From: an uncultured Clostridia bacterium
Lineage (GTDB): Bacteria > Bacillota > Clostridia > Oscillospirales > Acutalibacteraceae
DNA: 32,000 bases
Direction: 5' to 3'
Assembly (NCBI GenBank): GCA_944384905.1
Contig: CALWVE010000041.1
Location: 68,985-100,984 of the forward strand
Every line of letters begins with the position of its first letter. Position 1 is the stretch's first letter. The position numbers and the translations under genes are program-made. This document shows positions 3,438-32,000 of the stretch, one piece after another. Under the pieces are notes generated by a model. It was given only the letters and a program-made list of their open reading frames with translations. It did no database searches and was not told where the DNA came from.

Positions 3438-4025
3438 ATGAATCACAACAAGATCGTCCGCATGGCTACTTTGGCCATTCTGACCGCCATCGTGGTGGTG
3501 CTGCAGCTGATGGGCAGCTTCATCCACATCGGGCCTGTCGCAATTTCGCTGACACTGATCCCGATTGTCGTTGGCGCAGCTATGCTGGGTACATCGGCCG
3601 GTGCTTTCCTGGGCTTTGTTTTCGGCCTGGTCGTTACCATCGCCTGCGTAAACGGCACCGATATGGGCGGCAATATGATGTTTGTCGCCAACCCGCCGCT
3701 GACCGTTTTCCTGTGCCTGCTCAAAGGTACGGCCGCTGGCGCTGTAGCCGGTCTGATCTATAAAGCTCTGAGCGCCAAAAACAAACTGGCCGCTGTTCTG
3801 GTGGCCGCGATTGCCGCCCCCGTTACCAACACCGGTATTTTCTGCGCGGCGCTGGCGCTGTTCTATCAGCCCACGCTGGTAGCCTGGGCCAACGGAACCG
3901 ATCTTCTGGTTTATATGTTCGTAGGCCTGGTTGGCGTCAACTTCATCGTTGAAACGCTGATCAACGTCGTTTGCAGCCCCATCATCCTGCGCATCATCGA
4001 CGCCGTAAAGACCAAGCTCGCCTGA
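3438..4025 (+). CDS. ECF transporter S component (substrate-capture subunit; pantothenate suggested only by coaX linkage)
   Basis: ATG at 3438 follows AGGAGG (3425-3430). The ~195-aa protein is very hydrophobic with about six helices and G/A-rich TM segments. No EcfA/T genes are adjacent, as is usual for group II ECF S components. Confidence 0.75.
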   Translation: MNHNKIVRMATLAILTAIVVVLQLMGSFIHIGPVAISLTLIPIVVGAAMLGTSAGAFLGFVFGLVVTIACVNGTDMGGNMMFVANPPLTVFLCLLKGTAAGAVAGLIYKALSAKNKLAAVLVAAIAAPVTNTGIFCAALALFYQPTLVAWANGTDLLVYMFVGLVGVNFIVETLINVVCSPIILRIIDAVKTKLA

Positions 4026-4040
4026 TTGTTTCTGCATTTG

Positions 4041-4070
4041 AAAAGCCGTTGGATTTCCAGCGGCTTTTTC
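4041..4070 (+). terminator. Rho-independent terminator
   Basis: AAAAGCCGTTGG / CCAGCGGCTTTT stem (one G-U pair), loop ATTTC, T-run. Confidence 0.7.
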
Positions 4071-4100
4071 CATACAATATCATAATTTTTATTGGGAGGG

Positions 4101-4589
4101 ATGTTTTTGGATTCTATTGTTAAGCAATTAGATCAGAATTTTGCAGATGAATTTTGCCGATTAAGAATAGCTCTGTTTACCGAATTGGGCGAACTCTCTT
4201 CCGATTCGGACTACACCGAGCTAAACGCAGCAACAAAGCAATATTATTTGTCGCACATTAAGAAGGATTTGATGAGCTGGGGAATTTTTGACAACGAAAA
4301 TCTTGTTGCCATCGGTTCACTTTGCTTGTTCTCCCGTATCCCTTATCAGGAAAATTTAACCGGCTCAGAAGGCTATATTCTTAACATCTACACCATTCCT
4401 TCCCACCGAAAGCTTGGATATGCAAAACGGATTTTAGATGAGATCATCCGGTACAGTCGTGAAAATCATATCAACAGATTGTGGCTCAATGCCAGTGAAC
4501 AAGGAAAAGAAGTTTATAAAAAATTAGGGTTCCAAGAAAAAGATAATGAAATGGAACTATTTTTACCGCATACTTCTTTGAATGACTAA
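4101..4589 (+). CDS. GNAT family N-acetyltransferase
   Basis: The acetyl-CoA motif region is YILNIYTIPSHRKLGYAKRILDEII...LWLNASEQGKEVYKKLGF. The start is ambiguous: ATG 4101 directly abuts GGGAGGG, while TTG 4107 has better spacing. The sequence is visibly AT-rich compared with its flanks. Confidence 0.85.
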   Translation: MFLDSIVKQLDQNFADEFCRLRIALFTELGELSSDSDYTELNAATKQYYLSHIKKDLMSWGIFDNENLVAIGSLCLFSRIPYQENLTGSEGYILNIYTIPSHRKLGYAKRILDEIIRYSRENHINRLWLNASEQGKEVYKKLGFQEKDNEMELFLPHTSLND

Positions 4590-5441: not shown

Positions 5442-6819
5442 ACATCTGCACAATTTCGTCTGCAAACATCTGCACTTCTTTGGGATCGTGCGTCACCAAA
5501 ATAACAGCACTGCCGCGCAAAGCTTCAAACACGCGCTTGGCCACGCGGTCGCGCAAGGCCGGGTCTAATCCCTGGAACGGTTCGTCCAGCAGCACCAGCG
5601 GCGCCGGAGCGGCCAGCATCGCCGCCAAAGCCACACGGCGTTTCATTCCGCCGCTGAGCTGTTCCACCGGCAGATCGGCGCTATCGGTCAGTTCTACCCA
5701 TTCCAGCAAACCATCCGCATCGGCATCCGGGCGGATAAACAGAATGTTTTCCCGCGCCGTGCGCCCGGGCAGCAATCGATTTTCCTGAAAAAGAAACGCA
5801 CAGTTTTCCTTGCCTGTCACACCGTTGTCGTCTGTTTCCAGCCCCGCCCAAATGCGCAGGCAGGTTGTTTTGCCTTCCCCAGAAGGTCCCAGCAGAGCCG
5901 TAACACGTCCGGCCTCAACCGGCAATGTAAAGTGATCCAACACCAGCCGCTCTCCGAAATGTTTGGTCAGCGGCGGAAGCGGATGAAGCTCTGTTGATTC
6001 AGCAGGTTTCGTTTTGGATTTCTTTGCCCGCAGCGGAATGCGCAGCGAGAAGCGGCGCGTAAGCCGCACAAAGGCAAATTCAAGCAGCAGGCTAAGCAGC
6101 ACCACAACAAACGTCCACGCAAACAAATCGGTGGTTTCGATGTAAATTTTGGCGTTGTAAAGCTGCGTACCGATAGCCATTTTCGGCGTACAAAGCACCT
6201 CCGCGGCAATTCCGGCCTTCCAGGCCAACCCCAACGAAGTTACCATGGCTGAAAGAAAATACGGAAACACCCCCGGCAGTACAACATACAAAAAAGTTCG
6301 CCAGCGGCTCACGCGAAACACCTGCGCTTTTTCCAGCAGCTCGGGATCGGTCTCGCGCAGACCTTGCGCCACGTTTCCGCACACCACCGGGGACACAATC
6401 AACCCACCGATAAACGACGGCACGGAAGCTCTGGAGATCCAGACAAGCGCCAAAATAATGAACGAAGCCACCGGCGTAGCTTTAGCAGCCGCCAATACCG
6501 GACGCAGCAGACACGCCATAATCGGCGAAACGGAGATCAGCACAGCGGCCAAAACGCCGGCTGCCGTTCCCCAGAAAAGTCCCCGAAGGACGTTCCACAG
6601 CGAAAAAAGCGTCGTTTGCCAAAATGCGGCCGTCCCGATCAGTTCCCCCAGGCGAAGAAAAACAGAAACAGGCGATGGGATCAGGATTTCCTGATCCACC
6701 GCCCGATAGACTATTTGCCACAATCCCAACCAAAAAAGCGCGCACAAAATCCAAGCCGCCCACGTTTTAAAGCGTGAGCGGTTTGCTTTTTCAGTTGCCT
6801 TCGTAGTAAAAATCTTCAT
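5440..6819 (-). CDS. ABC importer, fused permease (NitT/TauT SsuC-like) and ATP-binding domain
   Basis: The N-terminal ~260 aa hold about six TM helices with an EAA-like loop (AQGLRETDPELLEKAQVFRVSRWRTF). The C-terminal ~185 aa carry Walker A GPSGEGKTT, Q-loop FQE, signature LSGGMKRR, Walker B LVLLDEP and H-loop VTHD. RBS GGAGGAG is inside the upstream gene. Confidence 0.88.
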   Translation of the reverse strand: MKIFTTKATEKANRSRFKTWAAWILCALFWLGLWQIVYRAVDQEILIPSPVSVFLRLGELIGTAAFWQTTLFSLWNVLRGLFWGTAAGVLAAVLISVSPIMACLLRPVLAAAKATPVASFIILALVWISRASVPSFIGGLIVSPVVCGNVAQGLRETDPELLEKAQVFRVSRWRTFLYVVLPGVFPYFLSAMVTSLGLAWKAGIAAEVLCTPKMAIGTQLYNAKIYIETTDLFAWTFVVVLLSLLLEFAFVRLTRRFSLRIPLRAKKSKTKPAESTELHPLPPLTKHFGERLVLDHFTLPVEAGRVTALLGPSGEGKTTCLRIWAGLETDDNGVTGKENCAFLFQENRLLPGRTARENILFIRPDADADGLLEWVELTDSADLPVEQLSGGMKRRVALAAMLAAPAPLVLLDEPFQGLDPALRDRVAKRVFEALRGSAVILVTHDPKEVQMFADEIVQM

Positions 6820-7828
6820 TCGGCAGCGCTCCTCCTACAGAGGCGGGGTTGGCATCGAACAGAACCTGCAGATTTTCCTGCATAATTGCTTTCATTTCAT
6901 CGCCGGTAATCAAGACGATGTTGCAGTTCGGAATAGCCGCTTTGGCTACTTCTGCGCTGGGAACAATCTCCTGACGGGCGATCGCTTCCGGTGCGGTTTC
7001 ATCTTCGTTGACAAATTCCACGGACTGGGCATATTCTTCCATAAAGGCAGCCACAGCCTCGGGATGCTCCTCCACAAAATCCTTTCTTGCAATCACACAG
7101 CCCATAGCCAGATCGGCGTCACAAACTTTGCCCCATTCTTCGGTCATATCGAACGCGATGGAAAAGCCCAAGTCTTTGGAAAGCAGCGCCGTTACGTTCG
7201 GTTCCGGCAATACGACGATATCCGCTTTTCCGGCCGCAGCCTGTGCTACGACTTCGCTGTGTTCAGCACAATACTGAATGTCCACATCCGATGCGGGATC
7301 GATTCCGTTTTCGCTGAGCACTTTATTCAAAATATATTCCGGCGTGGCGCCCTGTCCGGCAGAATAAATCGTTTTGCCTTTGAGATCTTCCAGCGAATTC
7401 AGCTTTTCCTTAGAAAGGATATACAGCACGCCCAGCGTATTGACACCCAATACCTGTACATTGCCGGAAGTCTTTTTATAAAGCGTGGAAGCCACATTCA
7501 CAGGTGCTGCGGCGATATCGGCATCTCCGTTGGCAATGGCCGCCACAACATCGGTGGGCGCACCGCAGAGCGTGAACGTATAGTTGTTCTGCGCTTTGCC
7601 TTCAGCTGCGTTTTCCATCAGCTGAACCATGCCCATGCCCGTCGGGCCCTGCAGGGTATACACACTAACATCTTCCATCGGCGCGGCTGTGGATTCGGTT
7701 TCGGAAGAAACTTCAGAAGAACTTTCCCCAGCGGAAGACGACACAGAAGATGTTCCGTTTCCACCCGCACAGGCGCTCAAAGAAAATACCATGGCTGCCG
7801 CCAATAAAATTGAAAGAATTTTTTTCAT
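6791..7828 (-). CDS. ABC transporter substrate-binding lipoprotein (NMT1/SsuA-like)
   Basis: Signal peptide plus lipobox LSAC, then a Ser-rich linker and an SBP fold typical of nitrate/sulfonate/HMP-type binders. RBS AGAGGGAG. The 3' end overlaps the permease-ATPase start by 29 nt. Confidence 0.87.
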   Translation of the reverse strand: MKKILSILLAAAMVFSLSACAGGNGTSSVSSSAGESSSEVSSETESTAAPMEDVSVYTLQGPTGMGMVQLMENAAEGKAQNNYTFTLCGAPTDVVAAIANGDADIAAAPVNVASTLYKKTSGNVQVLGVNTLGVLYILSKEKLNSLEDLKGKTIYSAGQGATPEYILNKVLSENGIDPASDVDIQYCAEHSEVVAQAAAGKADIVVLPEPNVTALLSKDLGFSIAFDMTEEWGKVCDADLAMGCVIARKDFVEEHPEAVAAFMEEYAQSVEFVNEDETAPEAIARQEIVPSAEVAKAAIPNCNIVLITGDEMKAIMQENLQVLFDANPASVGGALPNEDFYYEGN

Positions 7829-8949: not shown

Positions 8950-10215
8950 TTACAGGCCAATAAACGGAGCCGGGTCTACGCGGGTACCGTATTCATAAAC
9001 CTCAAAGTGGAGGTGGTTACCAAACGAGTTACCCGTATTGCCTACATAGCCGATAACCTGTCCGCGCTCTACATACTGGCCGCTGGAAACCGCCAGGCTG
9101 CTGCAGTGTGCATACAGCGTGGAATAGGTGGAGTTATGAGCAATCTGTACGTAATAGCCCCAACCGTAACCCCACTCATCCGTGGAGTTAGCATCTACAA
9201 CGTAACCGCTTTCGGCAGCCACAATGGGCGTACCATAGTTTGCGGCAAAGTCGATTCCCTTATGGCCGCGATCGTCGCCCCAATAAGAGGAGATGTACAC
9301 ATAACCGGGGCAGGGCCATGCAAACATAGCGCCTGTTTCATAATCGCCGCCGGAGCCACCTTCGGAGCCGCCTTCACTGCCGGAACCGGAATCGCCGGTA
9401 TTATCATCGCCACCGGAGTTTCCGCTCTGGTTCTGATCTTCCTGCTCCAGTTTATCCTGCCAAGCTTCATCTTCAAGAATCTGCTGCAGCTGTTCTTCAA
9501 GAATGTTGCTTTCTTCTTCGGTCTGCTGACGCTGGCCTTCTACTTCAATCTGCTGGCTGCGCAGATCTTCCAAAACGGCTTCGCATTCGGCTTCCAGACT
9601 CTGCAGTTCGGCCTGCTTGTCCTCCAAAGAGGTACGAAGCTCGGCTGCGGTTTCACGATCAGCCTGAACCTGGTTTCTGGTATCTTCGGTGCGATCCATA
9701 TAAGCAGAAACTTCTTCGATCAGCTGAGCGTCGTGCTCTGTAACAGCCTTCATCAGTTCGGCCTTTTCGGCGAACTCCGTCCAGCTATTGCTGCTCAGAA
9801 GAATCTGCAGTGTGCTTTCCTGACCGGATTCGTACAGCACCTTGATGCGCTGTTTAAGCAGTTCCATCGTAGAATCGATTTCGGCTTCTGCGGCATCCAA
9901 CTCGGCATCCAGCTCACGGATGTTTTCATCCAGCGCACTGATGTTGGCAATCGAAGCATCGATTTCGTCCTGAACCGAGCTGATCTGCTCCTGCAAGGTG
10001 TTGTAATATTCAAGCTGTTTGCTTTCATCATCTTTCAAAGAATCGAGCTTGCTCTGCAGCTCGTCCTGTTGGGCCTGCAAAGCGCTGATTTCTTCTTTTA
10101 CTTCATCAGAAGTTTTTGCAAAAACTTGTCCGGCCGGGCTGCACACCACAGCGGAGGCCAGCACACAAATGCTCAGTGCGGCCGAGAGAACTCTCTGGCG
10201 AATCGGTTTGTTCAT
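8950..10215 (-). CDS. M23 family peptidoglycan metalloendopeptidase with N-terminal coiled coil (EnvC/PcsB-like architecture)
   Basis: Signal/TM segment, a long E/Q/L-rich coiled coil, a G/S/D linker, then an M23 domain with catalytic HKGIDF and GNHLHFEV motifs intact. The start is ATG 10215, or GTG 10227 as in the track. Confidence 0.88.
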   Translation of the reverse strand: MNKPIRQRVLSAALSICVLASAVVCSPAGQVFAKTSDEVKEEISALQAQQDELQSKLDSLKDDESKQLEYYNTLQEQISSVQDEIDASIANISALDENIRELDAELDAAEAEIDSTMELLKQRIKVLYESGQESTLQILLSSNSWTEFAEKAELMKAVTEHDAQLIEEVSAYMDRTEDTRNQVQADRETAAELRTSLEDKQAELQSLEAECEAVLEDLRSQQIEVEGQRQQTEEESNILEEQLQQILEDEAWQDKLEQEDQNQSGNSGGDDNTGDSGSGSEGGSEGGSGGDYETGAMFAWPCPGYVYISSYWGDDRGHKGIDFAANYGTPIVAAESGYVVDANSTDEWGYGWGYYVQIAHNSTYSTLYAHCSSLAVSSGQYVERGQVIGYVGNTGNSFGNHLHFEVYEYGTRVDPAPFIGL

Positions 10216-10328
10216 ATGTATACGCACCTACCTTTTTCAACTTAAACAATCGGTTGATGTTTCACGTCTTTTACTGAAATGAGTTTGAAATGATTTTGTA
10301 ACCTTTTTGTCACTATTTTAGCATAGAT

Positions 10329-17795: not shown

Positions 17796-19004
17796 TCATT
17801 TGGAAAAGAAACAGATTTTCCCGGCGGATTCATCCACCGTATAACGCAGGTCAAAGAGTTTGCAGAAATCTTCGGCCGTAACACCTACACAAAATGTAGC
17901 GCCCACGTTGTGTTCCTCATCAACCGTTTTATATGCCAAAGGAATCGTTTCGCCGTTACGCTTCACACGCAGGTCTTCTACGCTTTTATCGTAAACGGCT
18001 CTCATTTCCCAGGTTGTATCGCCGATCGTCCATTCGCTTCGATACACGCCGTCCGCAGACTCCGCCGTGTAGCTGCCGCCCAGCGCCCGTACATATTCCC
18101 GGTTGATCAGCGGAACACTGGTTGAATCCGAAAGAAACCCAATATCCATCACCAGCATATACGATTGCTGTTCTTCGCTGTACCAGGCATATTTATAGGA
18201 ATCTGTTGTAAGCCCATACTGTGAATACGGATTATCCGTACTGTCGTACAGCATTTCCTCTCCGTCAAGTTCGATCGTCTCCAACAAAGAAACATGCTTA
18301 TCCTGCAAATACTGCGGCGGTATGTCCCCTCTGTTTTCGATCTTGCCGTCCGTGCAAAGCTGCGCATACTGATTGGCCAAACTGTTATACAGTTCCTCCC
18401 GGCTGTTTTGCCCTGTGAGCATCACATCGGTAATGTTTGTCCAGTTATCGTGCGCATCCATATCTTCCTGCGAAGGATACCAAACCACATGCACACGCGC
18501 CACGGGATGCTCGCTGAGAAATTCCGGCGCATTATAGGCAAGCTCGCGGCTGTAAACGGCATCCGCCTGGAGCAAAACATCCACGACGCTGTCGAGATCC
18601 GAAAAAGAGAGCAGCTGCATCCAGCCGTACGAATCCTCATACGCATCATGCGCGCGCAAAATTTCGCGAACCTCATCCGCATACAGATCATGCACAACCG
18701 AAACATAGTTGCAGCTGATCTCACGGGTATAAAACGAGGTTTTCGTGGCGTCGATCCAGATCGGGCTCAGATAGCTGTTTGCTGTAAATTCGAGTCCGCG
18801 ATCGCGCGTACGGAAACGATATTCCATATTATCCGGCGTTTCTTCGATAAGCTCTCGGCCGATTTCGTCATAGGCTTCTTTGCAGATTTCGTCCACATAT
18901 TCCAACACTTCGCGCCGTCCGTAGATTTCGGCATCGGCGCCAAGGCAAGAACAAAGGGAAACGCAGAGAAGCACCGCCAGCAGCAAGCCAAGCATTCGTT
19001 TCAT
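17796..19004 (-). CDS. Hypothetical lipoprotein (402 aa), no recognisable domain
   Basis: Signal peptide MKRMLGLLLAVLLCVSLCSC with a lipobox-like LCSC. RBS GGGGGAA. It starts only 36 nt after the upstream glycosidase gene. Confidence 0.72.
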   Translation of the reverse strand: MKRMLGLLLAVLLCVSLCSCLGADAEIYGRREVLEYVDEICKEAYDEIGRELIEETPDNMEYRFRTRDRGLEFTANSYLSPIWIDATKTSFYTREISCNYVSVVHDLYADEVREILRAHDAYEDSYGWMQLLSFSDLDSVVDVLLQADAVYSRELAYNAPEFLSEHPVARVHVVWYPSQEDMDAHDNWTNITDVMLTGQNSREELYNSLANQYAQLCTDGKIENRGDIPPQYLQDKHVSLLETIELDGEEMLYDSTDNPYSQYGLTTDSYKYAWYSEEQQSYMLVMDIGFLSDSTSVPLINREYVRALGGSYTAESADGVYRSEWTIGDTTWEMRAVYDKSVEDLRVKRNGETIPLAYKTVDEEHNVGATFCVGVTAEDFCKLFDLRYTVDESAGKICFFSK

Positions 19005-19040
19005 CTTCGTTTCCCCCGTTTCATTTTATTTGAAAACTGC

Positions 19041-21005
19041 TTAATAATCCAATTCGATAATCTGATAGCCGTCGATCACCGGAACGGTAAAGCTGCCGTT
19101 TTCCAGCGCGATTTCGCGGCCTTCGGGCTGCAGAACCGCTTTCTTCAGCGTTTCAGGCACACGCACCCGAACCTGTACATCCGCAAGCTTCGTGCGTTCT
19201 TCGATAATATCGATTTCGGCCGATTTGCGGACCGGGATATAAGAAAGCAGGTGCAGCGTATAGCGGTTCTGTTCCGGCTGATGCAGCAGGTTGACCGTCA
19301 GCGTGGACGGGCCGTCGTGCTCCACACAAAGCGAGCCGATCAGATGCGTCAGCGCATTTTTCACCAGCAGTTTGCACCAGCGCGGCGCATTGGCGCGATA
19401 CTGACCGAAGATCGGATGCGAGAACACTACCACACCGTTGTTTTCAAACACAGAGGGATAGGTCTCTCCTTTCGCGGACGGCGTATAGCGATGCGAACAG
19501 AACAGGCGGCCTTCGCGCGCAAAATAAGGCGCACGAGCCGAAAGCAGTGTTTCGGCGCCGCAGGAAGCCAGTTCTTCGCCGGCAAGATAGATCACATATT
19601 CTGCGCCGGATTCCAGCCCTTCGCCCAGCGGACCGTCGGCCACCAGGAAATCGGGGAATAGCGCGCGCTTGCCGCGATTTTCCACGCCGTAGCACTCGGG
19701 ATAGCGCCCGTTCTCCATCAGGCCGCCGCGGCCGGCAGCCAGAATTTTGCCGCCGTTTTTCACATAAGCATTCAGCTTCTCAGCCAGCTCTGCCGTGCCC
19801 GGAATATCTTCCGGCACGATCAGCAGACGATACGCAGAGAAATCCATCTCCGTATCGACTACATTATACTGAAGCGCCAATTCATCGAGCATTTGGCAAG
19901 CGCCCAAAAGCGCATCTGAAAGCTGATTTTCAACCAGCGGGTTTTCGGCCGTAAGCAGCGCCACTTCGGCTACCGGCCGGCTGGGCAGCGCGAACGCTTC
20001 GCGTTCCTCAAACTGGCGGTAAACTTTGCCGATGAGTTTATACGTCGTCGGGTTCACATGACCGTCCGGCTCCAGCTGGTCGCCGATCGAGCAGGCGCAG
20101 CCCATCGAAAGCATGCGGAAGGCTTCAAATTCCAGCGCAGCCTGATTTTTATAGGAATGGAAATCGCCCCAAGAGGTATGGAATTTACCGGTCATACCCA
20201 GGCAGGGTTTGCCCAACGTACGGGCATAGCGCACCGTTGCCGGGAAATGCAGATAGCCCCAGCCGCCGGACGGCAGGCTTTCAAGTTCAAAATGCGAATA
20301 GGTGTCTTTGCTGGGCTTGGTGCAGGGGCCGACATGTCCTGCATTATAGAAAATCGTGCAGTTCGGATTGTATTCACGAACCACGGCGCTCATTTTTTCT
20401 TTAAAGCGCTTCATCGTAAACGCGGCAAACGCACGAACGGCCGTTTCGTCGTTCATGTCGATGCCCTTCTGTTCCATCTCGCGGCGACAGGAGGCACACA
20501 GGCACGGACGGATGCCGACAATGTCAAAGAAAAGTCCGTCCAGTTCGTCGCCCAGCATTTCGCAGACTTCACGGGTCTGGGCTTCCAGGAAATCATAATA
20601 GCCCGTATTTACGCACAACGACTGATAAAAACCGGGCTTTGTAAAGGAATCGCCCTCGTGGGAACCATCGGCTTTACGGATCAGCCATTCGGGATGGTTT
20701 TCAGCGGAATGATAATCCCACTGCACCGTAATATAAACCGGCGCGCGAACGCCTGCTTCGTGCAGAGCGCGAACCTGCTTGAGCAGCAGGTTGGGTTCGC
20801 TCAAATTCGGATGAATCCGATCGGGGAAACGCTTGGACGGATAATACAGCCAGCCATGATGGCAGCGGGCAAACACCGTTACCGAGCTGACGTGCGCATC
20901 TTTAAAAGCCTTGGCAAAGGCTTTTTCATCAAAAGCCGAGCCAATGCCAGGAATATGTTCCGAAGTGTGAAAATCCAGATGAATCTGGCGCGGTGAAAGC
21001 TGCAT
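19041..21005 (-). CDS. Putative glycoside hydrolase, GHL6 / GH42-like (beta-galactosidase trimerisation-domain type)
   Basis: N-terminus RQIHLDFHTSE...CHHGW.YYPS is typical of the GHL6 TIM-barrel family. A central Rossmann-like region resembles the GH42 trimerisation domain. Recognised from memory, not searched. Confidence 0.7.
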   Translation of the reverse strand: MQLSPRQIHLDFHTSEHIPGIGSAFDEKAFAKAFKDAHVSSVTVFARCHHGWLYYPSKRFPDRIHPNLSEPNLLLKQVRALHEAGVRAPVYITVQWDYHSAENHPEWLIRKADGSHEGDSFTKPGFYQSLCVNTGYYDFLEAQTREVCEMLGDELDGLFFDIVGIRPCLCASCRREMEQKGIDMNDETAVRAFAAFTMKRFKEKMSAVVREYNPNCTIFYNAGHVGPCTKPSKDTYSHFELESLPSGGWGYLHFPATVRYARTLGKPCLGMTGKFHTSWGDFHSYKNQAALEFEAFRMLSMGCACSIGDQLEPDGHVNPTTYKLIGKVYRQFEEREAFALPSRPVAEVALLTAENPLVENQLSDALLGACQMLDELALQYNVVDTEMDFSAYRLLIVPEDIPGTAELAEKLNAYVKNGGKILAAGRGGLMENGRYPECYGVENRGKRALFPDFLVADGPLGEGLESGAEYVIYLAGEELASCGAETLLSARAPYFAREGRLFCSHRYTPSAKGETYPSVFENNGVVVFSHPIFGQYRANAPRWCKLLVKNALTHLIGSLCVEHDGPSTLTVNLLHQPEQNRYTLHLLSYIPVRKSAEIDIIEERTKLADVQVRVRVPETLKKAVLQPEGREIALENGSFTVPVIDGYQIIELDY

Positions 21006-22351: not shown

Positions 22352-22391
22352 AAAAAATGCACCCGTTTTTCACGGGTGCATTTCTTTTTTT
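22352..22391. terminator. Bidirectional terminator between convergent GH88 and Eis-like genes
   Basis: AAATGCACCCG (22355-22365) / CGGGTGCATTT (22373-22383), A-run before and T-run after. Confidence 0.75.
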
Positions 22392-22396
22392 ATGAT

Positions 22397-23605
22397 TTAG
22401 AAGTGATCGGTGAAGAACATCTGTTTGCGAACAAAAACTTTTTCCAGCACATCCCGGTTGCCGTGAACGCTTACATCGGAAAGATATTCCGTCTGCGCCA
22501 GTTCCACAAAACCGACGGCCAGCTGAGAGAACCGCTGGATCGTCACGGAAAGATCAAGCTCTTCCTCTGTAAGTTCTACCGAAAGCGCCTGCCCGTCTGC
22601 AAACGATACGGCATAAGTTCCGTTATTTTCGGGCAGGAACGCATCGCTCACCTGTATGGTAAAGCGTCCCGCTTCTTCGGGATAGCGCATCAGTTCCAGC
22701 GCTTTCTGTACACAGATAATCCGCATCTGGCCGTGCGGCGAAACAAGTTGACTGCATTCATACGGCTCCGGAATCATCGCCGAAACCGGCACATCTTCGG
22801 GCAGCTCCAGCCGCACTGCACGATACTGCGCGCGCAGACGATAGAAGAAGCCAAACACCTGACGCAGATCGTCCGGCGTAAGATAGGCCAGGTCACGCAC
22901 TTCGGCCAGATACCCATGTTCCTTCTCCATCGGCTTGGGAACAAAAATCACATACGCGCGCGGCAGGCCGTCTTCTCCGCAGAAAACATATTTATAAACG
23001 CGGTCTTTAAACGGATCGCCCTTTGCTGCCCACCACTGGTCGTCGCGGCGATGGATCGCCAGATTTTTCCCTTTAATAAATTCGGCGTGAACCGTTTTGA
23101 GATCGTCGAGCGGATCGTCTTTGCGGCACATATACACGTCCATCGTACAGGCAAAAGACTGGAACGCGTCGATCTCGATCTGCCAGGAAGCCTGTGTACA
23201 GCAAAGCTCGTAACCAAACTGGCGGTAATACGGATGAGAAAACGGGAACAGATACGAAAGCAAAAAGCCTTTCTGATACATCTCGCGGAACTGTTCGCGG
23301 AAAATGGCGCGAATACCGCCCTTGCTGCGGAATTCCGGCAGCGAACTAACGCCGCCCACGCCGCCGGCCGCCACGATATGCCCGTCAAATTCAACGCTGT
23401 AAATGTTGTTGGTCATCGTAGCGCAGATATCTTCGTTTTCATCCATAGCTCCCCAGAGATCATCCCGACGAGGCTTGTCCTTGGCTTCCTGATAAACTTT
23501 CAGGCGTTCATCGATATCCGTGCTGGATACAAAACCGACGGCACTGGTCATATCGTGCGCCAGAATTTCTTCAGGCGTGACAAGCTTTTTTACTTTGGGT
23601 TCCAT
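22397..23605 (-). CDS. Eis-like GNAT N-acetyltransferase (GNAT + GNAT-like + SCP2-like C-terminal architecture)
   Basis: ~400 aa. GGVGGVSSLPEFRSKGGIRAIF...LFPFSHPYYRQFGYE is characteristic of Eis-family enzymes. RBS GAGGAGGGG. Confidence 0.82.
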   Translation of the reverse strand: MEPKVKKLVTPEEILAHDMTSAVGFVSSTDIDERLKVYQEAKDKPRRDDLWGAMDENEDICATMTNNIYSVEFDGHIVAAGGVGGVSSLPEFRSKGGIRAIFREQFREMYQKGFLLSYLFPFSHPYYRQFGYELCCTQASWQIEIDAFQSFACTMDVYMCRKDDPLDDLKTVHAEFIKGKNLAIHRRDDQWWAAKGDPFKDRVYKYVFCGEDGLPRAYVIFVPKPMEKEHGYLAEVRDLAYLTPDDLRQVFGFFYRLRAQYRAVRLELPEDVPVSAMIPEPYECSQLVSPHGQMRIICVQKALELMRYPEEAGRFTIQVSDAFLPENNGTYAVSFADGQALSVELTEEELDLSVTIQRFSQLAVGFVELAQTEYLSDVSVHGNRDVLEKVFVRKQMFFTDHF

Positions 23606-23668
23606 TCAACACCCCTCCTCGAAGTCAATGGCACCAGTATAGCAGAATTGTAAGATTAGAGCAATATT

Positions 23669-26565: not shown

Positions 26566-28329
26566 TTATTCGAAATCGTAGGCTTCGTATTGTACTTCGT
26601 TCAGCTTAGCCATAATTTCGGCATCCGAATCCGGAACACAGTAAACCGTCAAATTCTCCTTATCGGTTGTATCGAAGATATTGCGGCCGTATTCTTCAAG
26701 TGTGGCCGGAATATAAACTTTCTCGAGCGCCTTGCACTGGGCAAATACGGAATCACCAAACTTCGTCACCGTATCGCTGATGTGAACTTCTTTTAATCCA
26801 TAGCAGCGATAGAAAACATTGCTGCCCAATTCCGTAACGCCTTCCGGAATCGTCATAGAAGTTATATTTTCACAAGAAGCAAATACGTAATCCCCGATTT
26901 CTTCGATCTGCATGGTGCTGAAATCAAAGCTGGTCAGCGCATCACAGCTGCTGAACAAGCCTTCGGGCAGCGTCTTGATCGAAGCCGGCAGCGTCAGGCC
27001 GGTAAGCGAATCGCAATCCGCAAAAGCATAAGCGCCCAACTTTTCCAGGCTATCGGGCAAAACCGGATGAACCAGAGAGTCACAGGCGGAGAAAGCATAT
27101 TCGCCAATCGAAGTGAGCGAATTGCCCTCAAACGTCAGCGTAGCAAGCGCCGGGCAATCACAGAAAGCCGTATCGCCGATTTCCGTTACGGAAGCGGGGA
27201 TCGTAATCCCCTTGAGCGATGTACAACCCGCAAAAGCATTGGAGCCAATCTTGGTCACCGTAGAGGGAATCGTAAACTCCGTAAAGCTGCTGCATCCATA
27301 GAATGTGTACTCTTTGATTTCCGTAACGCCTTCCGGCAGATCTACGCCCTTGAGCGAGGAGCAATTCTGGAAAACATAGCCGGGAAGATCGGTCAGATGA
27401 TCCGGCAGCGAAACGGAAGTAAGTCCGGTGCAGCCGTAAAAGATAGCTTCGCCGATCGTCTCAACCGTTTCCGGAACCACCATTTCGGTCAGCGATGTGC
27501 ATTCCGAAAAAACGCCGCCTTGCAATTCCTTAATGTTGGCGCCAATCGTAAACGATTTCAGGTTACTGCACTGATAAAACAGGCTTTCACTCAAAACCGT
27601 AACGCCTTCGGGAATCGTAATTTCCGTAATCGAAGAGCAGCCCATAAAGCAGGAAGAACCGATTTCCGTGATTCCCTTGGGAAGGTCAATAGACTTGAGG
27701 GAAGAACACTTGGAAAATACGCCTTGTCCCAGTTTAGTCAGCCCCTCGGGAAGCGTAACGCTTTCAAGCGCCGTACAGCCCATAAAAGCGCCGTCATCAA
27801 TCGAAGTTACCTGCTCGGGAACCGTATAGCTGGTCAGGCTGGTGCAGTTACCGAAAAGAGCCGCGGGCATTTCTTTCATATATTTCGGGAAAGCAAACTC
27901 CTTCAGGTTTGTGCAGCCATAAAAAGCGGCTTCGCCCAAAACCTGCAGCGTTTCCGGCACATTCACGGTGCTGAGCATCGTGCAGCCATAAAATGCCTGC
28001 GCGCCAATCGTTGTAATGGAAGACGGCAGCGTAACAGACGTAAGCGTGGTATTTTCGGCAAAGGCGCCTGCGGCAATACCCGTTACCGGCAGATTTTCAT
28101 AAGTAGCCGGCACTTCAACCGCACTGTCCGTACCATTATAAGCCGCAATTTCTACATACGTATCATAAATCTGATACTCCCACGTTTCACCCGTTCCGGA
28201 TACTTCCGAACCGAAAATTCCGGGATCACTGCCTGAGGGCAGATTGGTTTTGCAGCCTGCCATGGCCAGGCAAAATGCAACCAGCAGCAGCCCCATGGCC
28301 GCCAGCCGGAAAACAGACCGTCGTTTCAT
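26566..28329 (-). CDS. BspA-type leucine-rich repeat (LRR_5) surface lipoprotein
   Basis: Signal peptide with lipobox LAMAGC, then about 20 tandem ~23-aa units of the form L.SV.IP..VT.IG..AF..C..L. Confidence 0.87.
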   Translation of the reverse strand: MKRRSVFRLAAMGLLLVAFCLAMAGCKTNLPSGSDPGIFGSEVSGTGETWEYQIYDTYVEIAAYNGTDSAVEVPATYENLPVTGIAAGAFAENTTLTSVTLPSSITTIGAQAFYGCTMLSTVNVPETLQVLGEAAFYGCTNLKEFAFPKYMKEMPAALFGNCTSLTSYTVPEQVTSIDDGAFMGCTALESVTLPEGLTKLGQGVFSKCSSLKSIDLPKGITEIGSSCFMGCSSITEITIPEGVTVLSESLFYQCSNLKSFTIGANIKELQGGVFSECTSLTEMVVPETVETIGEAIFYGCTGLTSVSLPDHLTDLPGYVFQNCSSLKGVDLPEGVTEIKEYTFYGCSSFTEFTIPSTVTKIGSNAFAGCTSLKGITIPASVTEIGDTAFCDCPALATLTFEGNSLTSIGEYAFSACDSLVHPVLPDSLEKLGAYAFADCDSLTGLTLPASIKTLPEGLFSSCDALTSFDFSTMQIEEIGDYVFASCENITSMTIPEGVTELGSNVFYRCYGLKEVHISDTVTKFGDSVFAQCKALEKVYIPATLEEYGRNIFDTTDKENLTVYCVPDSDAEIMAKLNEVQYEAYDFE

Positions 28330-28444: not shown

Positions 28445-29623
28445 TTAAGTGAAGTCCTCATCACAAGCGCTTATCTTATAAATTCGAACCTCTTTATTTA
28501 ATTTTCGGGCATAGTCAAGCGAGTTTTTCGTTCCCTTGGAAACGCCGTCCCAGATCGCTACCACCAGATCGGCTCGCTCAATAATTTCCCGGTTTCTTAC
28601 CAATGGCGCGGCGCGTCCATAGCGGCTATAATCCGGCCGGATCACCGTACACGGCAAATTGTGTTCCCGGGCGTATTGCTCCGCCAATTGATCCACGCCT
28701 TCCGCTCCGCCGGTAATAATTTCGCTTGTCTGCGCAGGAATAAACGCATCGATCGACATATCAACTCCGCGCGATCCGATTACGGCAACTGCCACGGGAT
28801 TTTTTGGCGGTTCAAAATCTTCAAAAATACAGACCGCTCCGTCTTCTTTCAGTTCGTTATACGTATCCATATCCGACACCGTCCAACTCAATTCAGTCAA
28901 TCCAAAAAGTTTTTTTGCCAGCCGCAAAGAAAGAATTTTGCGGTAATGCCAATTATAAGCTACAAAATCTGGCCGCGTCCAGAAACTAGTCAGTAAGTTT
29001 TCGGCAGCCCATAAAGCCGGTCTCGGCAGCGCCGTCTGTTCTTTTGAAAAATGCGTCAGCAGCTGCCCTCGGAAAACACGCGGCCGATTTTTTCTAATCC
29101 AATGAAGCACCGTAGGATCGAACGACTCGATTGCAAAATTTCCGTCATACGCATCCAGCAGCCGAAAAACAGCTTCGCACAGCCGTGCGGTATCCCGCTG
29201 CGTTTTAAGCTCAATCAACAAAGGGACGCGCCCTTTTATTTCGGCCAGTACCTGAGAAAATTCCGGAACCGCTTCACCGGAAGGAAAACGATAGCACAGA
29301 AGTTGCCGCAAGGAAAGCTCCGAAATCCGCTCGTGCCGGCCAAATAAGCGCAGCAAATTATCATCATGAAAAACAACCGGCACGCCGTCTCGGGTCAGGC
29401 GGACATCGAGTTCGATGCCCCAGCCGCCCCCAACAGCCGCCCGAAACGCCGGCAGGGTGTTTTCTTCTATAAACCGTGTTTTGTTATGCAGTCCGCGGTG
29501 GGCATAATCATACCGGCAAAATGGTTTTGAATCCGGCCGATGAAAAAGCCGGGGTGCAATCAAAAAAAGCCCTATCCCAAACGCCGCAGACAAACCTAAA
29601 AAAATAGACAAAAAAAGCTGCAT
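28445..29623 (-). CDS. Membrane-anchored glycerophosphodiester phosphodiesterase (GDPD) fused to a C-terminal SLOG (DUF2493/YpsA-like) domain
   Basis: I prefer ATG 29623 (GAAGGAG 8 nt upstream) over the track start 29704. TM helix LFLSIFLGLSAAFGIGLFLIAP. GDPD motifs YAHRGL, ENTLPAF, GIELDVRLTRDGVPVVFHDDNL. After the linker EPPKNP comes VAVIGSRG...IITGGAEGVDQLAEQYA...APLVRNREII...VVAIWDGVSKGTKNSLDYARK (about 28448-28795). Confidence 0.8.
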   Translation of the reverse strand: MQLFLSIFLGLSAAFGIGLFLIAPRLFHRPDSKPFCRYDYAHRGLHNKTRFIEENTLPAFRAAVGGGWGIELDVRLTRDGVPVVFHDDNLLRLFGRHERISELSLRQLLCYRFPSGEAVPEFSQVLAEIKGRVPLLIELKTQRDTARLCEAVFRLLDAYDGNFAIESFDPTVLHWIRKNRPRVFRGQLLTHFSKEQTALPRPALWAAENLLTSFWTRPDFVAYNWHYRKILSLRLAKKLFGLTELSWTVSDMDTYNELKEDGAVCIFEDFEPPKNPVAVAVIGSRGVDMSIDAFIPAQTSEIITGGAEGVDQLAEQYAREHNLPCTVIRPDYSRYGRAAPLVRNREIIERADLVVAIWDGVSKGTKNSLDYARKLNKEVRIYKISACDEDFT

Positions 29624-29654
29624 ATTTTCGGCTCCTTCGCCCGAAACAAACGGC

Positions 29655-29704
29655 TTGTTATTTACCCTGACTTTCAGTATACTGGATTTACCTTGAATCT
29701 TCAA
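29655..29704. promoter_or_regulatory. Overlapping divergent promoters sharing a palindromic -10 (AGTATACT)
   Basis: Plus strand: TTGTTA (29655-29660), 17 nt, TATACT (29678-29683). Minus strand: TTGAAG (29704-29699), 17 nt, TATACT (29681-29676). Confidence 0.45.
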
Positions 29705-29739: not shown

Positions 29740-32000
29740 ATGAAATTTACCAAAGGTTACTGGCTGAATCTGCCCGGCGTTACCATCGCCGACGCTGTAC
29801 AGATTCGTCAGGTTCGCGCCGAAAACGATCGGCTCTATTTGTATGCCGTTCCCTATCCGCAGGATGAACGTGCGTTGGGCGGCCCTGTACTGGAAATGTA
29901 TGTCAGCGCGCCCGCGCCGGATATTCTTCGCATTCAGGCGGATCATTTTATCGGCAGCGCCAAGAAAATTCCTCAGTTTGAACTCAACTTCTCCCCCTGC
30001 TCGCTTAACATTCAGGAAGAAGAAAACAGCGTCACCGTAACCAACGGACGTCTTTCGCTGGTGATTCAGAAAAATCCGTGCGACATGACTTTTTATTGGG
30101 ACGGCGAATATCTCACACACGTCGGCAACCGTTTCGGCCATGCCATGATCAGCACCATCCAAACACCCGAAGGCCCGTATATGCGTGCCCAGCTCGATTT
30201 GGACGTGGGCGAAAAAGTCTATGGCTTGGGCGAACGCTTCACGCCGTTTGTGAAAAACGGACAGGTTGTGGATATGTGGAACGAAGACGGCGGTACCTGC
30301 AGCGAAATCGCCTATAAAAATATCCCGTTCTACCTGACCAACCGTGGCTATGGTGTGCTGGTCAATTCCAGCGACAAAGTTTCGTTTGAAGTCTGCTCCG
30401 AAGTCGTGACCCGCGTGCAGTTCAGCCTGCCCGGTGAATCGCTTGATTTCATGGTGATCGGCGGCGGTGAGATGAAAGGCGTGTTAGAGCGCTATACCGG
30501 CCTGACGGGCCGCCCGGCTTTGCCGCCTGCCTGGACGTTTGGCCTGTGGCTTTCTTCTTCGTTCACAACGTCTTACGATGAAGAGACCGTCAATCATTTT
30601 GTAGACGGCATGGCCCAGCGCGGCATCCCGCTTTCCGTCTTCCATTTCGATTGCTACTGGATGAGCGAAAACGAGTGGTGCAACTTTACCTGGGACAGCC
30701 GTGTTTTCCCCGATCCCAAAGGCATGCTGGCGCGCATGAAGGCGCGCGGCCTGCATATCTGCGTGTGGATCAATTCCTATATCGGGCAAAAATCTCCGCT
30801 GTTCAAAGAAGCCATGGAACATGGCTACCTGCTGCGCCGCCCCAACGGGGATGTTTGGCAATGGGATCTGTGGCAGGCCGGTATGGGTCTGGTGGATTTC
30901 ACGAACCCGGACGCCTGCGAATGGTTTAAATCCAAACTGCGCGCTCTGCTTGAAATGGGCGTGGATTGCTTTAAGACCGATTTCGGCGAACGCATCCCGA
31001 CGGACTGCGTGTATTTTGACGGTTCCGACCCAGAGCACATGCACAATTATTATACCTACTTATACAACAAAACCGTGTTTGAAGTATTGGAGGAATATAA
31101 AGGAAAAGGCGGCGCCTGCCTGTTTGCACGAAGTGCAACCGTAGGCGGACAGAAATTCCCGGCTCACTGGGGCGGCGACTGCACCTCCAACTATGTTTCC
31201 ATGGCGGAATCGCTGCGCGGCGGGCTTTCGCTGGCGCTGAGTGGGTTCGGCTTCTGGAGCCACGATATGAGCGGCTTTGAGGGCACCGCCTCGCCAGATG
31301 TTTATAAGCGCTGGGCGGCGTTCGGCCTGCTTTCCACCCATTCGCGGCTGCACGGTTCCCAGTCTTATCGCGTGCCGTGGCTGTTCGATGAAGAATCCGT
31401 AGACGTATTGCGGTTCTTCTCCAAACTGAAATGCCGCCTGATGCCCTATCTGTATGATGCTGCCGTACAGGCGCACGAAGAGGGCATCCCGGTTATGCGG
31501 GCAATGGTTTTGGCATTCCCGGGCGATATTGCGGCAGAAGACGCCGACCGGCAGTATATGCTGGGTGAAAACCTGCTGGTGGCTCCCGTTTTCCGTGAAG
31601 ACGGCCGCGTCGATTATTATTTGCCCGCCGGGAAATGGACGCACCTGCTTTCTGGCGACACCGCCCAAGGCGGCAGCTGGAAACGCGAAACCTACGACTA
31701 TTTCAGCCTTCCGCTGTTTGTCCGCTCCGGCAGCCTGATTGCGCTGGGCGAAGAGGAAGATCAGACCGTTTACGATTACACCGGCCGCTCCTGCCTGCAT
31801 CTGTTTGATCTTGCAGACGGACAGGAAGCTTCCTGCCGCACCTGTAATTCAGACGGCGTACATGAACGCACGGTAACCATCCGCCGCAAAGGAAACATGC
31901 TGCATGTACACGCCGAAGGCCGTTTCGAAAACACGCGCATCCAGCTGCGTAAGATGCCGGCGGTTCTCTCCTGCACCGGCTGCTCTTTTGAAGGGACAGA
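29740..32000 (+). CDS. yicI: GH31 alpha-xylosidase (YicI-like), 3' end beyond the window; not in the ORF track
   Basis: ATG at 29740 follows GAAGGGA. The frame stays open for 753 codons to the edge. MKFTKGYWL..., VYGLGERFT, YKNIPFYLTNRGYGVLVN, GRPALPPAWTFGLWL, VDCFKTDFGERIPTD, HWGGDC, GFGFWSHD and HSRLHGSQSYRVPW are colinear with E. coli YicI as I remember it. Confidence 0.92.
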   Translation, partial: MKFTKGYWLNLPGVTIADAVQIRQVRAENDRLYLYAVPYPQDERALGGPVLEMYVSAPAPDILRIQADHFIGSAKKIPQFELNFSPCSLNIQEEENSVTVTNGRLSLVIQKNPCDMTFYWDGEYLTHVGNRFGHAMISTIQTPEGPYMRAQLDLDVGEKVYGLGERFTPFVKNGQVVDMWNEDGGTCSEIAYKNIPFYLTNRGYGVLVNSSDKVSFEVCSEVVTRVQFSLPGESLDFMVIGGGEMKGVLERYTGLTGRPALPPAWTFGLWLSSSFTTSYDEETVNHFVDGMAQRGIPLSVFHFDCYWMSENEWCNFTWDSRVFPDPKGMLARMKARGLHICVWINSYIGQKSPLFKEAMEHGYLLRRPNGDVWQWDLWQAGMGLVDFTNPDACEWFKSKLRALLEMGVDCFKTDFGERIPTDCVYFDGSDPEHMHNYYTYLYNKTVFEVLEEYKGKGGACLFARSATVGGQKFPAHWGGDCTSNYVSMAESLRGGLSLALSGFGFWSHDMSGFEGTASPDVYKRWAAFGLLSTHSRLHGSQSYRVPWLFDEESVDVLRFFSKLKCRLMPYLYDAAVQAHEEGIPVMRAMVLAFPGDIAAEDADRQYMLGENLLVAPVFREDGRVDYYLPAGKWTHLLSGDTAQGGSWKRETYDYFSLPLFVRSGSLIALGEEEDQTVYDYTGRSCLHLFDLADGQEASCRTCNSDGVHERTVTIRRKGNMLHVHAEGRFENTRIQLRKMPAVLSCTGCSFEGT

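Follow-up and report, generated by a model that had tools for sequence, protein, structure and literature searches.

A young, one-lineage fusion of a membrane-anchored glycerophosphodiesterase and a YAcAr-type SLOG module in uncultured gut Clostridia

The SLOG families are said to have been defined in Burroughs et al. 2015, NAR. One of them, YAcAr (Pfam PF10686, the former DUF2493, described as the 'YspA, cpYpsA-related SLOG family'), is a large family of small proteins that are abundant in phages. Binding or processing of nucleotide-derived ligands by this family is a prediction in the literature (PMC7824862), and no characterised YAcAr/DUF2493 protein was found in the literature searched. 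DprA and ShosA bind single-stranded DNA (PMC11961720). In Thoeris ThsA, a SLOG domain is fused to an effector as the ligand sensor (e.g. PMC11204291). Here we analyse an open reading frame (ORF) of an uncultured Clostridia bacterium in which a YAcAr-type SLOG module is joined to a membrane-anchored glycerophosphodiesterase (GDPD). It lies within a stretch of 32,000 nucleotides (nt) of contig CALWVE010000041.1 (assembly GCA_944384905.1, positions 68,985 to 100,984), and this whole stretch is called the window below.

The fused reading frame and its junction

The fused ORF begins with an ATG at 29623 and runs uninterrupted to a stop codon at 28445-28447. It encodes, in this order, an N-terminal transmembrane helix, a complete GDPD, a linker of 6 amino acids (aa), EPPKNP, and a 116-aa YAcAr/DUF2493 SLOG. 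This is the layout that had been read in the initial annotation, and both the ORF reading and the Pfam matches bear it out. The identical 392-aa protein is present in a public collection, on a 113-kb NCBI contig. The features of the gene are the following.

28445..29623, minus strand: fused ORF, transmembrane helix + GDPD + linker + SLOG, 392 aa plus stop codon
29552..29620, minus strand: predicted N-terminal transmembrane anchor, residues ~2-24 (hydropathy, counts of lysine and arginine)
28814..29500, minus strand: GDPD catalytic domain, residues 42-270 (Pfam PF03009, invariant columns, PDB sequence and fold matches)
28796..28822, minus strand: fusion junction, net +1 nt (alignments and junction read-outs against sister species)
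28793..28795, minus strand: codon 277, GTG, counterpart of the ATG at which the unfused SLOG gene starts in the sister species (junction alignments)
28448..28795, minus strand: YAcAr/DUF2493-type SLOG module, residues 277-392 (Pfam PF10686, PHROG 289, AlphaFold2, Foldseek)
29632..29704, minus strand: putative expression signals, promoter-like site and Shine-Dalgarno sequence (consensus scan, sequence reading)

The same two modules are encoded by separate genes in the sister species. The nearest non-fused relative (P0002, 72% identical, contig L002) has a 277-aa GDPD gene and a separate 116-aa YAcAr gene with a 4-nt ATGA overlap, and the YAcAr gene is followed by the same 587-aa leucine-rich repeat (LRR) gene as in the window. 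The arrangement recurs in L090 (NCBI assembly GCA_965335735.1), L091 and L092, in which the GDPD is 52-57% identical to that of the window: a 277-281-aa GDPD, the ATGA overlap, a 111-aa YAcAr and an LRR gene of ~600 aa. Such ATGA stop/start overlaps are typical of translational coupling, and the overlap is kept in 4/4 sister lineages (L002, L090, L091 and L092) despite a GDPD amino-acid divergence of 28-48%. Between the flanking motifs TTTGA and GT[G/A]ATCGG the junction has 28 nt in the window and 27 nt in L002. As a result of this net gain of one nucleotide, the GDPD frame no longer meets the old stop but continues in the SLOG frame, and the ATGA overlap is lost; the linker corresponds to codons 271-276 (28796-28813).

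The fused form is not confined to a single assembly. At 90% identity, the fusion falls into a cluster of 20 distinct proteins. Among the 15 members listed, which were found in NCBI, ENA and Logan assemblies (contigs of up to 133 kb), 14 are 392 aa long, and the fused junction is kept in 15/15. The linker reads EPPKNP, EPPKDS or EPPKNS in these alleles, and codon 277 encodes V, I or M. Between the window and L001 the GDPD half differs by 23 synonymous and 11 non-synonymous changes (synonymous divergence, dS, 0.12; ratio of non-synonymous to synonymous divergence, dN/dS, 0.14), and the SLOG half by 8 synonymous and 2 non-synonymous changes (dS 0.10, dN/dS 0.07). Since both halves differ mostly at synonymous sites, the fused gene has persisted and is fixed in its lineage, with purifying selection acting on both parts.

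It had been reasoned in the initial annotation that orthologs with two separate genes would mark the fusion as an artefact. The orthologs do have two genes; nevertheless, the conservation of the junction in all 15 alleles and the selection on both halves show that the fusion is no artefact. A spurious 1-nt indel introduced by sequencing or assembly could in principle join two real genes, and the two-gene state of the sister species as well as the A6 run in the window junction, CCAAAAAAT, would be in keeping with it. However, the 15 distinct variants that share the junction stem from independent NCBI, ENA and Logan assemblies, some fused alleles have no homopolymer at the junction (CCGAAAGATTCC), and alleles at dS~0.1 keep the frame. 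As far as assemblies can show, the artefact reading is refuted, and we give it practically no credence. We are highly confident that the fusion is real and that it originated from the two-gene state in the window's lineage. It is evolutionarily very young and restricted to one species-level lineage of uncultured gut Clostridia, in which an ATGA-overlapping gene pair became fused; it represents neither an established family nor a new type of system.

Several sequences of the same species that at first sight look unfused were considered and rejected. P0121 and its cluster of 104-144-aa 'separate SLOG' proteins do not represent an unfused allele, and the apparent split in L093 was rejected because its contig begins inside the ORF. 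Two short, low-coverage contigs carry a damaged GDPD part, and both damaged versions stem from the fused form. In L003 there is a 76-nt deletion between TTGA repeats, corresponding to window positions 28812-28887, with the SLOG intact. In L094, codon 232 is a TAG, i.e. a nonsense codon in the GDPD part, and the fused junction and SLOG are intact. None of these three contigs represents the ancestral two-gene state.

The GDPD and SLOG halves of the protein

The Pfam match to GDPD (PF03009) is strong (E=2.4e-24, 87.2 bits vs a cutoff of 23.6) and spans profile positions 1-241 of 244. The residues that are invariant in 23 aligned family members, H42 R43, E71 D73, H86, E138 and K140, are all present; they presumably correspond to the catalytic and metal-binding residues of solved GDPDs. 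PDB sequence and fold searches gave matches to the GDPDs 4oec, 2pz0 and 3qvq, to GlpQ (5t9c) and to the Staphylococcus aureus lysophosphatidylglycerol phospholipase D (LPG-PLD, 8ghi). As regards the TIM-barrel fold of GDPDs, the top 50 Foldseek matches of the GDPD model are nearly all GDPDs, with E-values down to 4e-12, but residues 193-276 of this model are unreliable (misaligned multiple sequence alignment). With the NCBIfam equivalogs for UgpQ-like enzymes (PRK09454) and LPG-PLD the GDPD half scores far below the cutoffs, and the NCBIfam search with the fused protein gave weak, sub-threshold matches only. More than 5,000 GDPD homologs were scored, and nearly all of them are 270-300 aa long and begin with a hydrophobic helix of this kind. 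As a GDPD, the N-terminal 276 aa belong as an ordinary member to a very large family of transmembrane-anchored proteins in Clostridia.

The charges around the transmembrane helix are distributed asymmetrically. There is no lysine or arginine before the helix and there are four within the 15 residues after it, and the same tendency is seen across 117 family members (mean 0.7 before and 3.6 after, with 94% of the proteins having more after). Because the positive charges are C-terminal of the helix, the positive-inside rule places the GDPD on the cytoplasmic side. The predicted topology is N-out/C-in, with the remainder of the fused protein facing the cytoplasm, and such a topology would be compatible with a fused SLOG of cytoplasmic type.

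The C-terminal module was assigned by several comparisons. PF10686 matches residues 299-335; the score is 35.2 bits for the whole protein and rises to 38.2 bits when the C-terminal 116 aa are used alone (cutoff 28.2), the match covering profile positions 30-66 of 66 only. Weaker, sub-threshold Pfam matches point to other SLOG members, i.e. DprA, LDcluster4 and cpYpsA. PHROG 289 matches the module with E=1.8e-21. The motifs VIGSRG, TGGAEGVD, VRNREII and WDGVSKGT, on which the initial annotation had based its recognition of a SLOG of the DUF2493 type, coincide with invariant columns of 74 aligned family members. AlphaFold2 modelling of the C-terminal 118 aa from a clean 74-sequence alignment gave a pLDDT of 93.9 and a pTM of 0.86. 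The profile match above cutoff, the confident model and the fold matches together uphold the earlier assignment.

The fold comparisons also indicate where in the superfamily the module is situated. The best matches of the model among solved structures (Foldseek, PDB) are ShosA (8zva, E=2e-4) and DprA (4ljk and 3uqz, query TM-score, TMq, 0.74-0.77), with further matches to molybdenum-cofactor carriers (6y01, 3imk) and to DNPH1/nucleoside 2-deoxyribosyltransferases; ThsA (6lhx) is found at rank 31 with a TMq of 0.53. The best predicted viral structures (Foldseek, BFVD) carry DUF2493 or YspA-cpYpsA-related SLOG annotations and superpose with a TMq of 0.81-0.89 and a root-mean-square deviation of ~2 A. 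A PDB sequence search with the SLOG module gave no significant match (3imk E=0.1, DprA E=0.45), i.e. the relationship is resolved by fold search only. Judged by its predicted structure, the module is a YAcAr-type SLOG that is nearer to the DprA branch than to LOG or to the ThsA sensor, with a Rossmann-like fold, a glycine-rich GGAxGxD loop and a GT motif towards the C-terminus.

Distribution of the pairing and context of the locus

The two-domain architecture is rare. When the full-length protein was compared with 5.8 billion clustered proteins, one other two-domain cluster was found (P0001, 97% identical, 392 aa), and the remaining 119 matches listed were GDPD only. The SLOG-only query returned 170 proteins, none of them with a GDPD domain and most of them stand-alone proteins of 104-140 aa. 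In an exhaustive HMMER search of the full fusion against 1.84 billion cluster representatives, 0 of the best 150 matches cover both domains, all of them being limited to residues ~1-276. A second, independent GDPD-SLOG fusion should outscore these 150 matches, and none was seen among them. The initial annotation knew of no characterised GDPD-SLOG protein, and none was found here either.

The two-gene pairing is likewise confined to a small group. In 80 GTDB species genomes with a GDPD 37-47% identical to that of the window, 0/80 have a SLOG ORF within 6 kb. The GDPD-linked SLOGs (n=5) form a single clade in a neighbour-joining tree, and their identities to the window module (79% and 59-62%) parallel those of the GDPDs (72% and 52-57%). 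Those SLOGs that follow in similarity (55-58% identical) are in unrelated chromosomal contexts: one is upstream of an aldo-keto reductase gene, another is between an NTP_transf_5/MORN gene and a DUF8091 gene. At 40-55% identity, SLOG relatives are frequent in viral, prophage-like contigs, and a GDPD adjoins the SLOG in 0/80 viral SLOG loci. Clade membership and synteny show that the SLOG gene joined downstream of the GDPD once, within a small Oscillospirales clade.

In 4/4 prophage-like loci sampled, the YAcAr gene is flanked on one side by genes for DNA methyltransferases that are large or fused to ParB, and on the other by an amidoligase gene or two, an arrangement that looks like a recurrent mobile-element module. 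The position of the gene in these loci is as follows.

~4001-4330 in each: SLOG gene in the IMG/VR contigs L095, L098, L100 and L104 (viral loci sampled)

The fused gene lies between two other genes, as had been stated in the initial annotation (a surface LRR lipoprotein gene on one side and a glycosidase gene on the other).

26566..28329, minus strand: BspA-type LRR lipoprotein gene, 587 aa, downstream of the fused ORF (Pfam LRR_5, E=7e-152)
29740..32000, plus strand: divergent GH31 glycosidase gene, running beyond the end of the window (Pfam GH31 domains)

The LRR protein has a lipobox-like LAMAGC at its N-terminus, and its gene is syntenic throughout the GDPD-SLOG clade (L001, L002, L090-L092 and L094). 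A promoter-like site of this gene is found at 28426-28399, in an intergenic region conserved with L002. This gene was not detected in any of the 80 GTDB GDPD loci (tblastn, E<=1e-10), and its arrival may have coincided with that of the SLOG. The head-to-head GH31/GDPD arrangement is present in 22/80 GTDB loci (Acutalibacter, Neglectibacter and others, e.g. L010, L011, L015, L016 and L020), and across these loci GH31 is 65-73% identical as compared to 38-45% for the GDPD, which suggests an old functional or regulatory link between GH31 and GDPD that is independent of the SLOG. Because the GH31 neighbour is conserved in 22/80 loci, the GDPD is old and vertically inherited at this locus, and the SLOG and the LRR gene are later additions downstream. 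In distant orthologs, the sequence that follows the GDPD varies, and ORF calls there are noisy. Horizontal transfer of the whole gene, which the earlier remark on AT-richness might suggest, was considered and rejected for the GDPD half, given the conserved GH31/GDPD synteny across genera.

The base composition and expression signals of the gene had also been commented on previously. The gene had been described as more AT-rich than its neighbours, and this holds at third codon positions (GC3 0.49 vs 0.62-0.73 in the neighbours) but hardly for the overall GC content, which is barely below the window mean (0.497 vs 0.516). The lowest GC3 of the region is that of the GDPD half. Since it is this vertically inherited half that has the lowest value, the low GC3 of the fused gene is not indicative of transfer. 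A Shine-Dalgarno sequence, AAGGAG, is at 29632-29637, 8 nt upstream of the ATG. The promoter that had been ascribed to the gene exists in the form of a promoter-like site, TTGAAG-17-TATACT at 29704-29676, which is a consensus match only.

The window as a whole is chromosomal DNA of a spore-forming Clostridia bacterium. It contains genes for SpoIIP, methionyl-tRNA synthetase, TatD, inorganic pyrophosphatase and DAHP synthase, as well as for type III pantothenate kinase, a P-type ATPase and an M23 peptidase; the methionyl-tRNA synthetase shares ~80% identity with its counterparts in Caproiciproducens, Caproicibacter and Caproicibacterium. Sugar-metabolism genes (GH31, GH88, GHL6, GFO/IDH/MocA and xylose-isomerase-like TIM barrels) are found near the locus. 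Pfam scans of ORFs >=150 aa revealed no TIR, cyclase, Nudix or defence gene in the window, which agrees with the previous remark that no signal-generating partner is visible there. PADLOC gave no ThsA match and only weak matches to PsyrA (E=6.5e-4) and ShosA (E=5e-3), and with Rfam, applied to the complete window at gathering thresholds, no RNA element was found. The locus looks like one of ordinary chromosomal metabolism or envelope maintenance, not like an immune module.

A few further observations concern other parts of the window. A 459-aa ORF at 5443-6819 (minus strand) fuses ABC permease (BPD_transp_1) and ABC ATPase domains, and an NMT1/THI5-type binding protein adjoins this fusion, the coordinates of the pair being 5443-6819 and 6794-7828, both on the minus strand. 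Many ORFs of 150-450 aa are antisense to real genes or overlap them, e.g. 27067-28236, 9007-10245 and 18294-19661, all on the plus strand. Those tested have no family matches, and such ORFs seem to stem from base composition and not to be real genes. At 22376-23653 there is a plus-strand ORF of 425 aa without a Pfam match, overlapped by a minus-strand ORF of 402 aa that is a GNAT/SCP2 (Eis-like) acetyltransferase. As only the minus-strand ORF has a family match, the real gene is on that strand; it lies inside an otherwise plus-strand cluster of sugar genes.

Interpretation and comparison with known systems

We propose the following course of events. The ancestral state was a membrane-anchored GDPD gene of ~277 aa with an ATGA-overlapping YAcAr SLOG gene of 111-116 aa. 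The SLOG gene probably came from the pool of small, stand-alone YAcAr genes borne by phages, i.e. a mobile-element origin is likely; it was acquired a single time, by a small group of uncultured Oscillospirales that are relatives of Caproiciproducens, and has since co-diverged with the GDPD. A net gain of one nucleotide in the last few GDPD codons produced a single polypeptide of 392 aa with a 6-residue linker. The GDPD may act on the cytoplasmic face of the membrane, hydrolysing glycerophosphodiester bonds of lipid-derived substrates. The SLOG would accompany it in stoichiometric amounts as an accessory subunit, with a nucleotide-type ligand bound, and would modulate or target the GDPD. In that case the fusion would have turned a pre-existing 1:1 partnership into a covalent one. 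That the two proteins acted jointly at 1:1 before the fusion is suggested by the retention of the ATGA overlap in four lineages, by the co-divergence of the pair and by the tolerance of a 6-residue tether. As a whole, this account of a young fusion of a co-translated, co-inherited pair with the SLOG as accessory ligand-binding subunit is the one to which we lean, with moderate confidence; the part that makes the SLOG a functional accessory or regulatory partner of the GDPD is tentative. A full-length AlphaFold2 model was rejected as evidence of domain packing. In the mixed alignment used for it, MAFFT had matched the last 80 residues of the GDPD-only proteins to the SLOG part, so that the alignment is faulty at residues 193-276, and the model has a pTM of 0.61 and low pLDDT values at 212-272.

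Several observations weigh against a working partnership. Most GDPD orthologs are without a SLOG and most SLOG relatives are without a GDPD, and the association could be incidental. The damaged GDPD parts of L003 and L094, with the SLOG intact, hint that some strains may do without the GDPD half; alternatively, the damage may consist of assembly errors at low coverage. The same facts, together with the occurrence of the SLOG family in prophage-like contigs and unrelated chromosomal contexts and the limitation of the pairing to one small clade and of the fusion to one lineage, can be accommodated by a neutral accident, i.e. a mobile-element SLOG gene was stranded behind the GDPD, neither the overlap nor the fusion matters for function, and each module acts by itself on substrates unrelated to those of the other. 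We consider this rather unlikely, as the overlap has been kept in the sister lineages at substantial GDPD divergence, the pair co-diverges as a unit and both halves have been under purifying selection after the fusion. Moreover, a tether of 6 residues to a membrane protein would probably be counter-selected if it hindered an unrelated soluble function.

Alternatively, the SLOG could itself be an enzyme, e.g. an N-glycosidase similar to LOG or DNPH1 or another nucleotide-processing protein, that forms with the GDPD a two-step, channelled pathway acting on a nucleotide-containing glycerophosphodiester. Fusions of consecutive pathway enzymes are common, the superfamily includes enzymes, DNPH1 and the nucleoside 2-deoxyribosyltransferases are among the fold matches, and the fused protein has a weak Pfam match to Nuc_deoxyrib_tr. 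On the other hand, there is no match to LOG (PF03641) even at E<=1, and the motif at the LOG-equivalent position is WDGVSKGTKNS, without the Glu of the LOG catalytic motif, PGGxGTxxE. The closest folds are those of non-catalytic binders (DprA and ShosA, which bind DNA, PMC11961720, and next to them a molybdenum-cofactor carrier), no candidate substrate is known, and the pairing is absent from nearly all GDPD orthologs. This explanation is improbable. Slightly more doubtful still is the idea, raised in the initial annotation, of a ligand-gated effector or signal-degrading enzyme; spelled out, the SLOG would sense a nucleotide second messenger (e.g. a cyclic ADP-ribose isomer) and switch on a lipid-cleaving GDPD, as in ThsA-like abortive infection. 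The ThsA precedent, the confirmed SLOG fold with 6lhx among its matches and the predicted membrane tether of the GDPD are consistent with it. The idea gained no support here, however: the window has no TIR, cyclase, other signal generator or defence gene, PADLOC found weak PsyrA and ShosA matches and no ThsA, the ThsA fold is distant as compared to the phage DUF2493 proteins and DprA, the locus is vertically inherited, syntenic and next to sugar-metabolism genes, and the GDPD orthologs are without any sensor. A more specific form, equally doubtful, would be a SLOG-gated membrane-disrupting effector, where the ligand activates or oligomerises a GDPD that cleaves inner-leaflet phospholipids, the signal generator being encoded elsewhere or supplied by a phage. 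If this were true, the two-gene form of the sister species would be an unrecognised two-component version, built from a domesticated phage YAcAr gene.

The fusion, together with the conserved, co-diverging gene pair that preceded it, is one of few concrete clues to a physical or functional partner of the YAcAr/DUF2493 proteins, and the candidate partner is a membrane-tethered glycerophosphodiesterase predicted to face the cytoplasm. The sister species supply unfused controls, which makes this a tractable system for questions on the SLOG ligand and on enzyme regulation. Moreover, the locus shows cleanly, and in a way that can be dated, how a change of one base at a stop/start overlap fuses two genes. 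Nevertheless, its phylogenetic range is tiny and there is no pointer to a new type of system, so the general significance is modest.

The SLOG module is most similar to the stand-alone YAcAr/DUF2493 proteins of phages and Firmicutes (PF10686, PHROG 289), with which it shares size, fold and the motifs GSR, GGAxGxD, RN and WDGxSxGT, and it is 40-58% identical to many of them. It differs from these relatives in being attached to a membrane GDPD; most of those found stand alone and have 104-140 aa, a few exceed this length, and a GDPD is present in none. The best matches among solved structures are the Rossmann-like domains of DprA and ShosA, with shared GxAxGxD and RNR-type motifs. However, with its 116 aa the module is about half the size of the DprA Rossmann domain and is without SAM or winged-helix domains, and the DprA profiles stay below cutoff (PF02481, 21 bits vs 29.6; TIGR00732, 16.6 vs 191). 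In contrast to ShosTA/PsyrTA there is no gene for a phosphoribosyltransferase (PRTase) toxin near the fused ORF. With Thoeris ThsA (SIR2-SLOG) the protein has in common that a SLOG is fused to a hydrolytic effector domain, and the ThsA fold (6lhx) is a detectable relative; the differences are another SLOG subfamily, a GDPD in place of SIR2, no ThsB/TIR partner, no PADLOC match and no defence-island context. The GDPD half, finally, has the same transmembrane plus GDPD layout and the same invariant residues as the ~277-aa GDPDs of Clostridia, with thousands of homologs, and the fold matches of its partly unreliable model are 2pz0, 3qvq, 5t9c and 8ghi; the characterised GDPDs to compare it with are UgpQ, GlpQ and the S. 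aureus lysophosphatidylglycerol phospholipase D. What sets it apart from the other Clostridia GDPDs is the C-terminal SLOG, which occurs only in this lineage.

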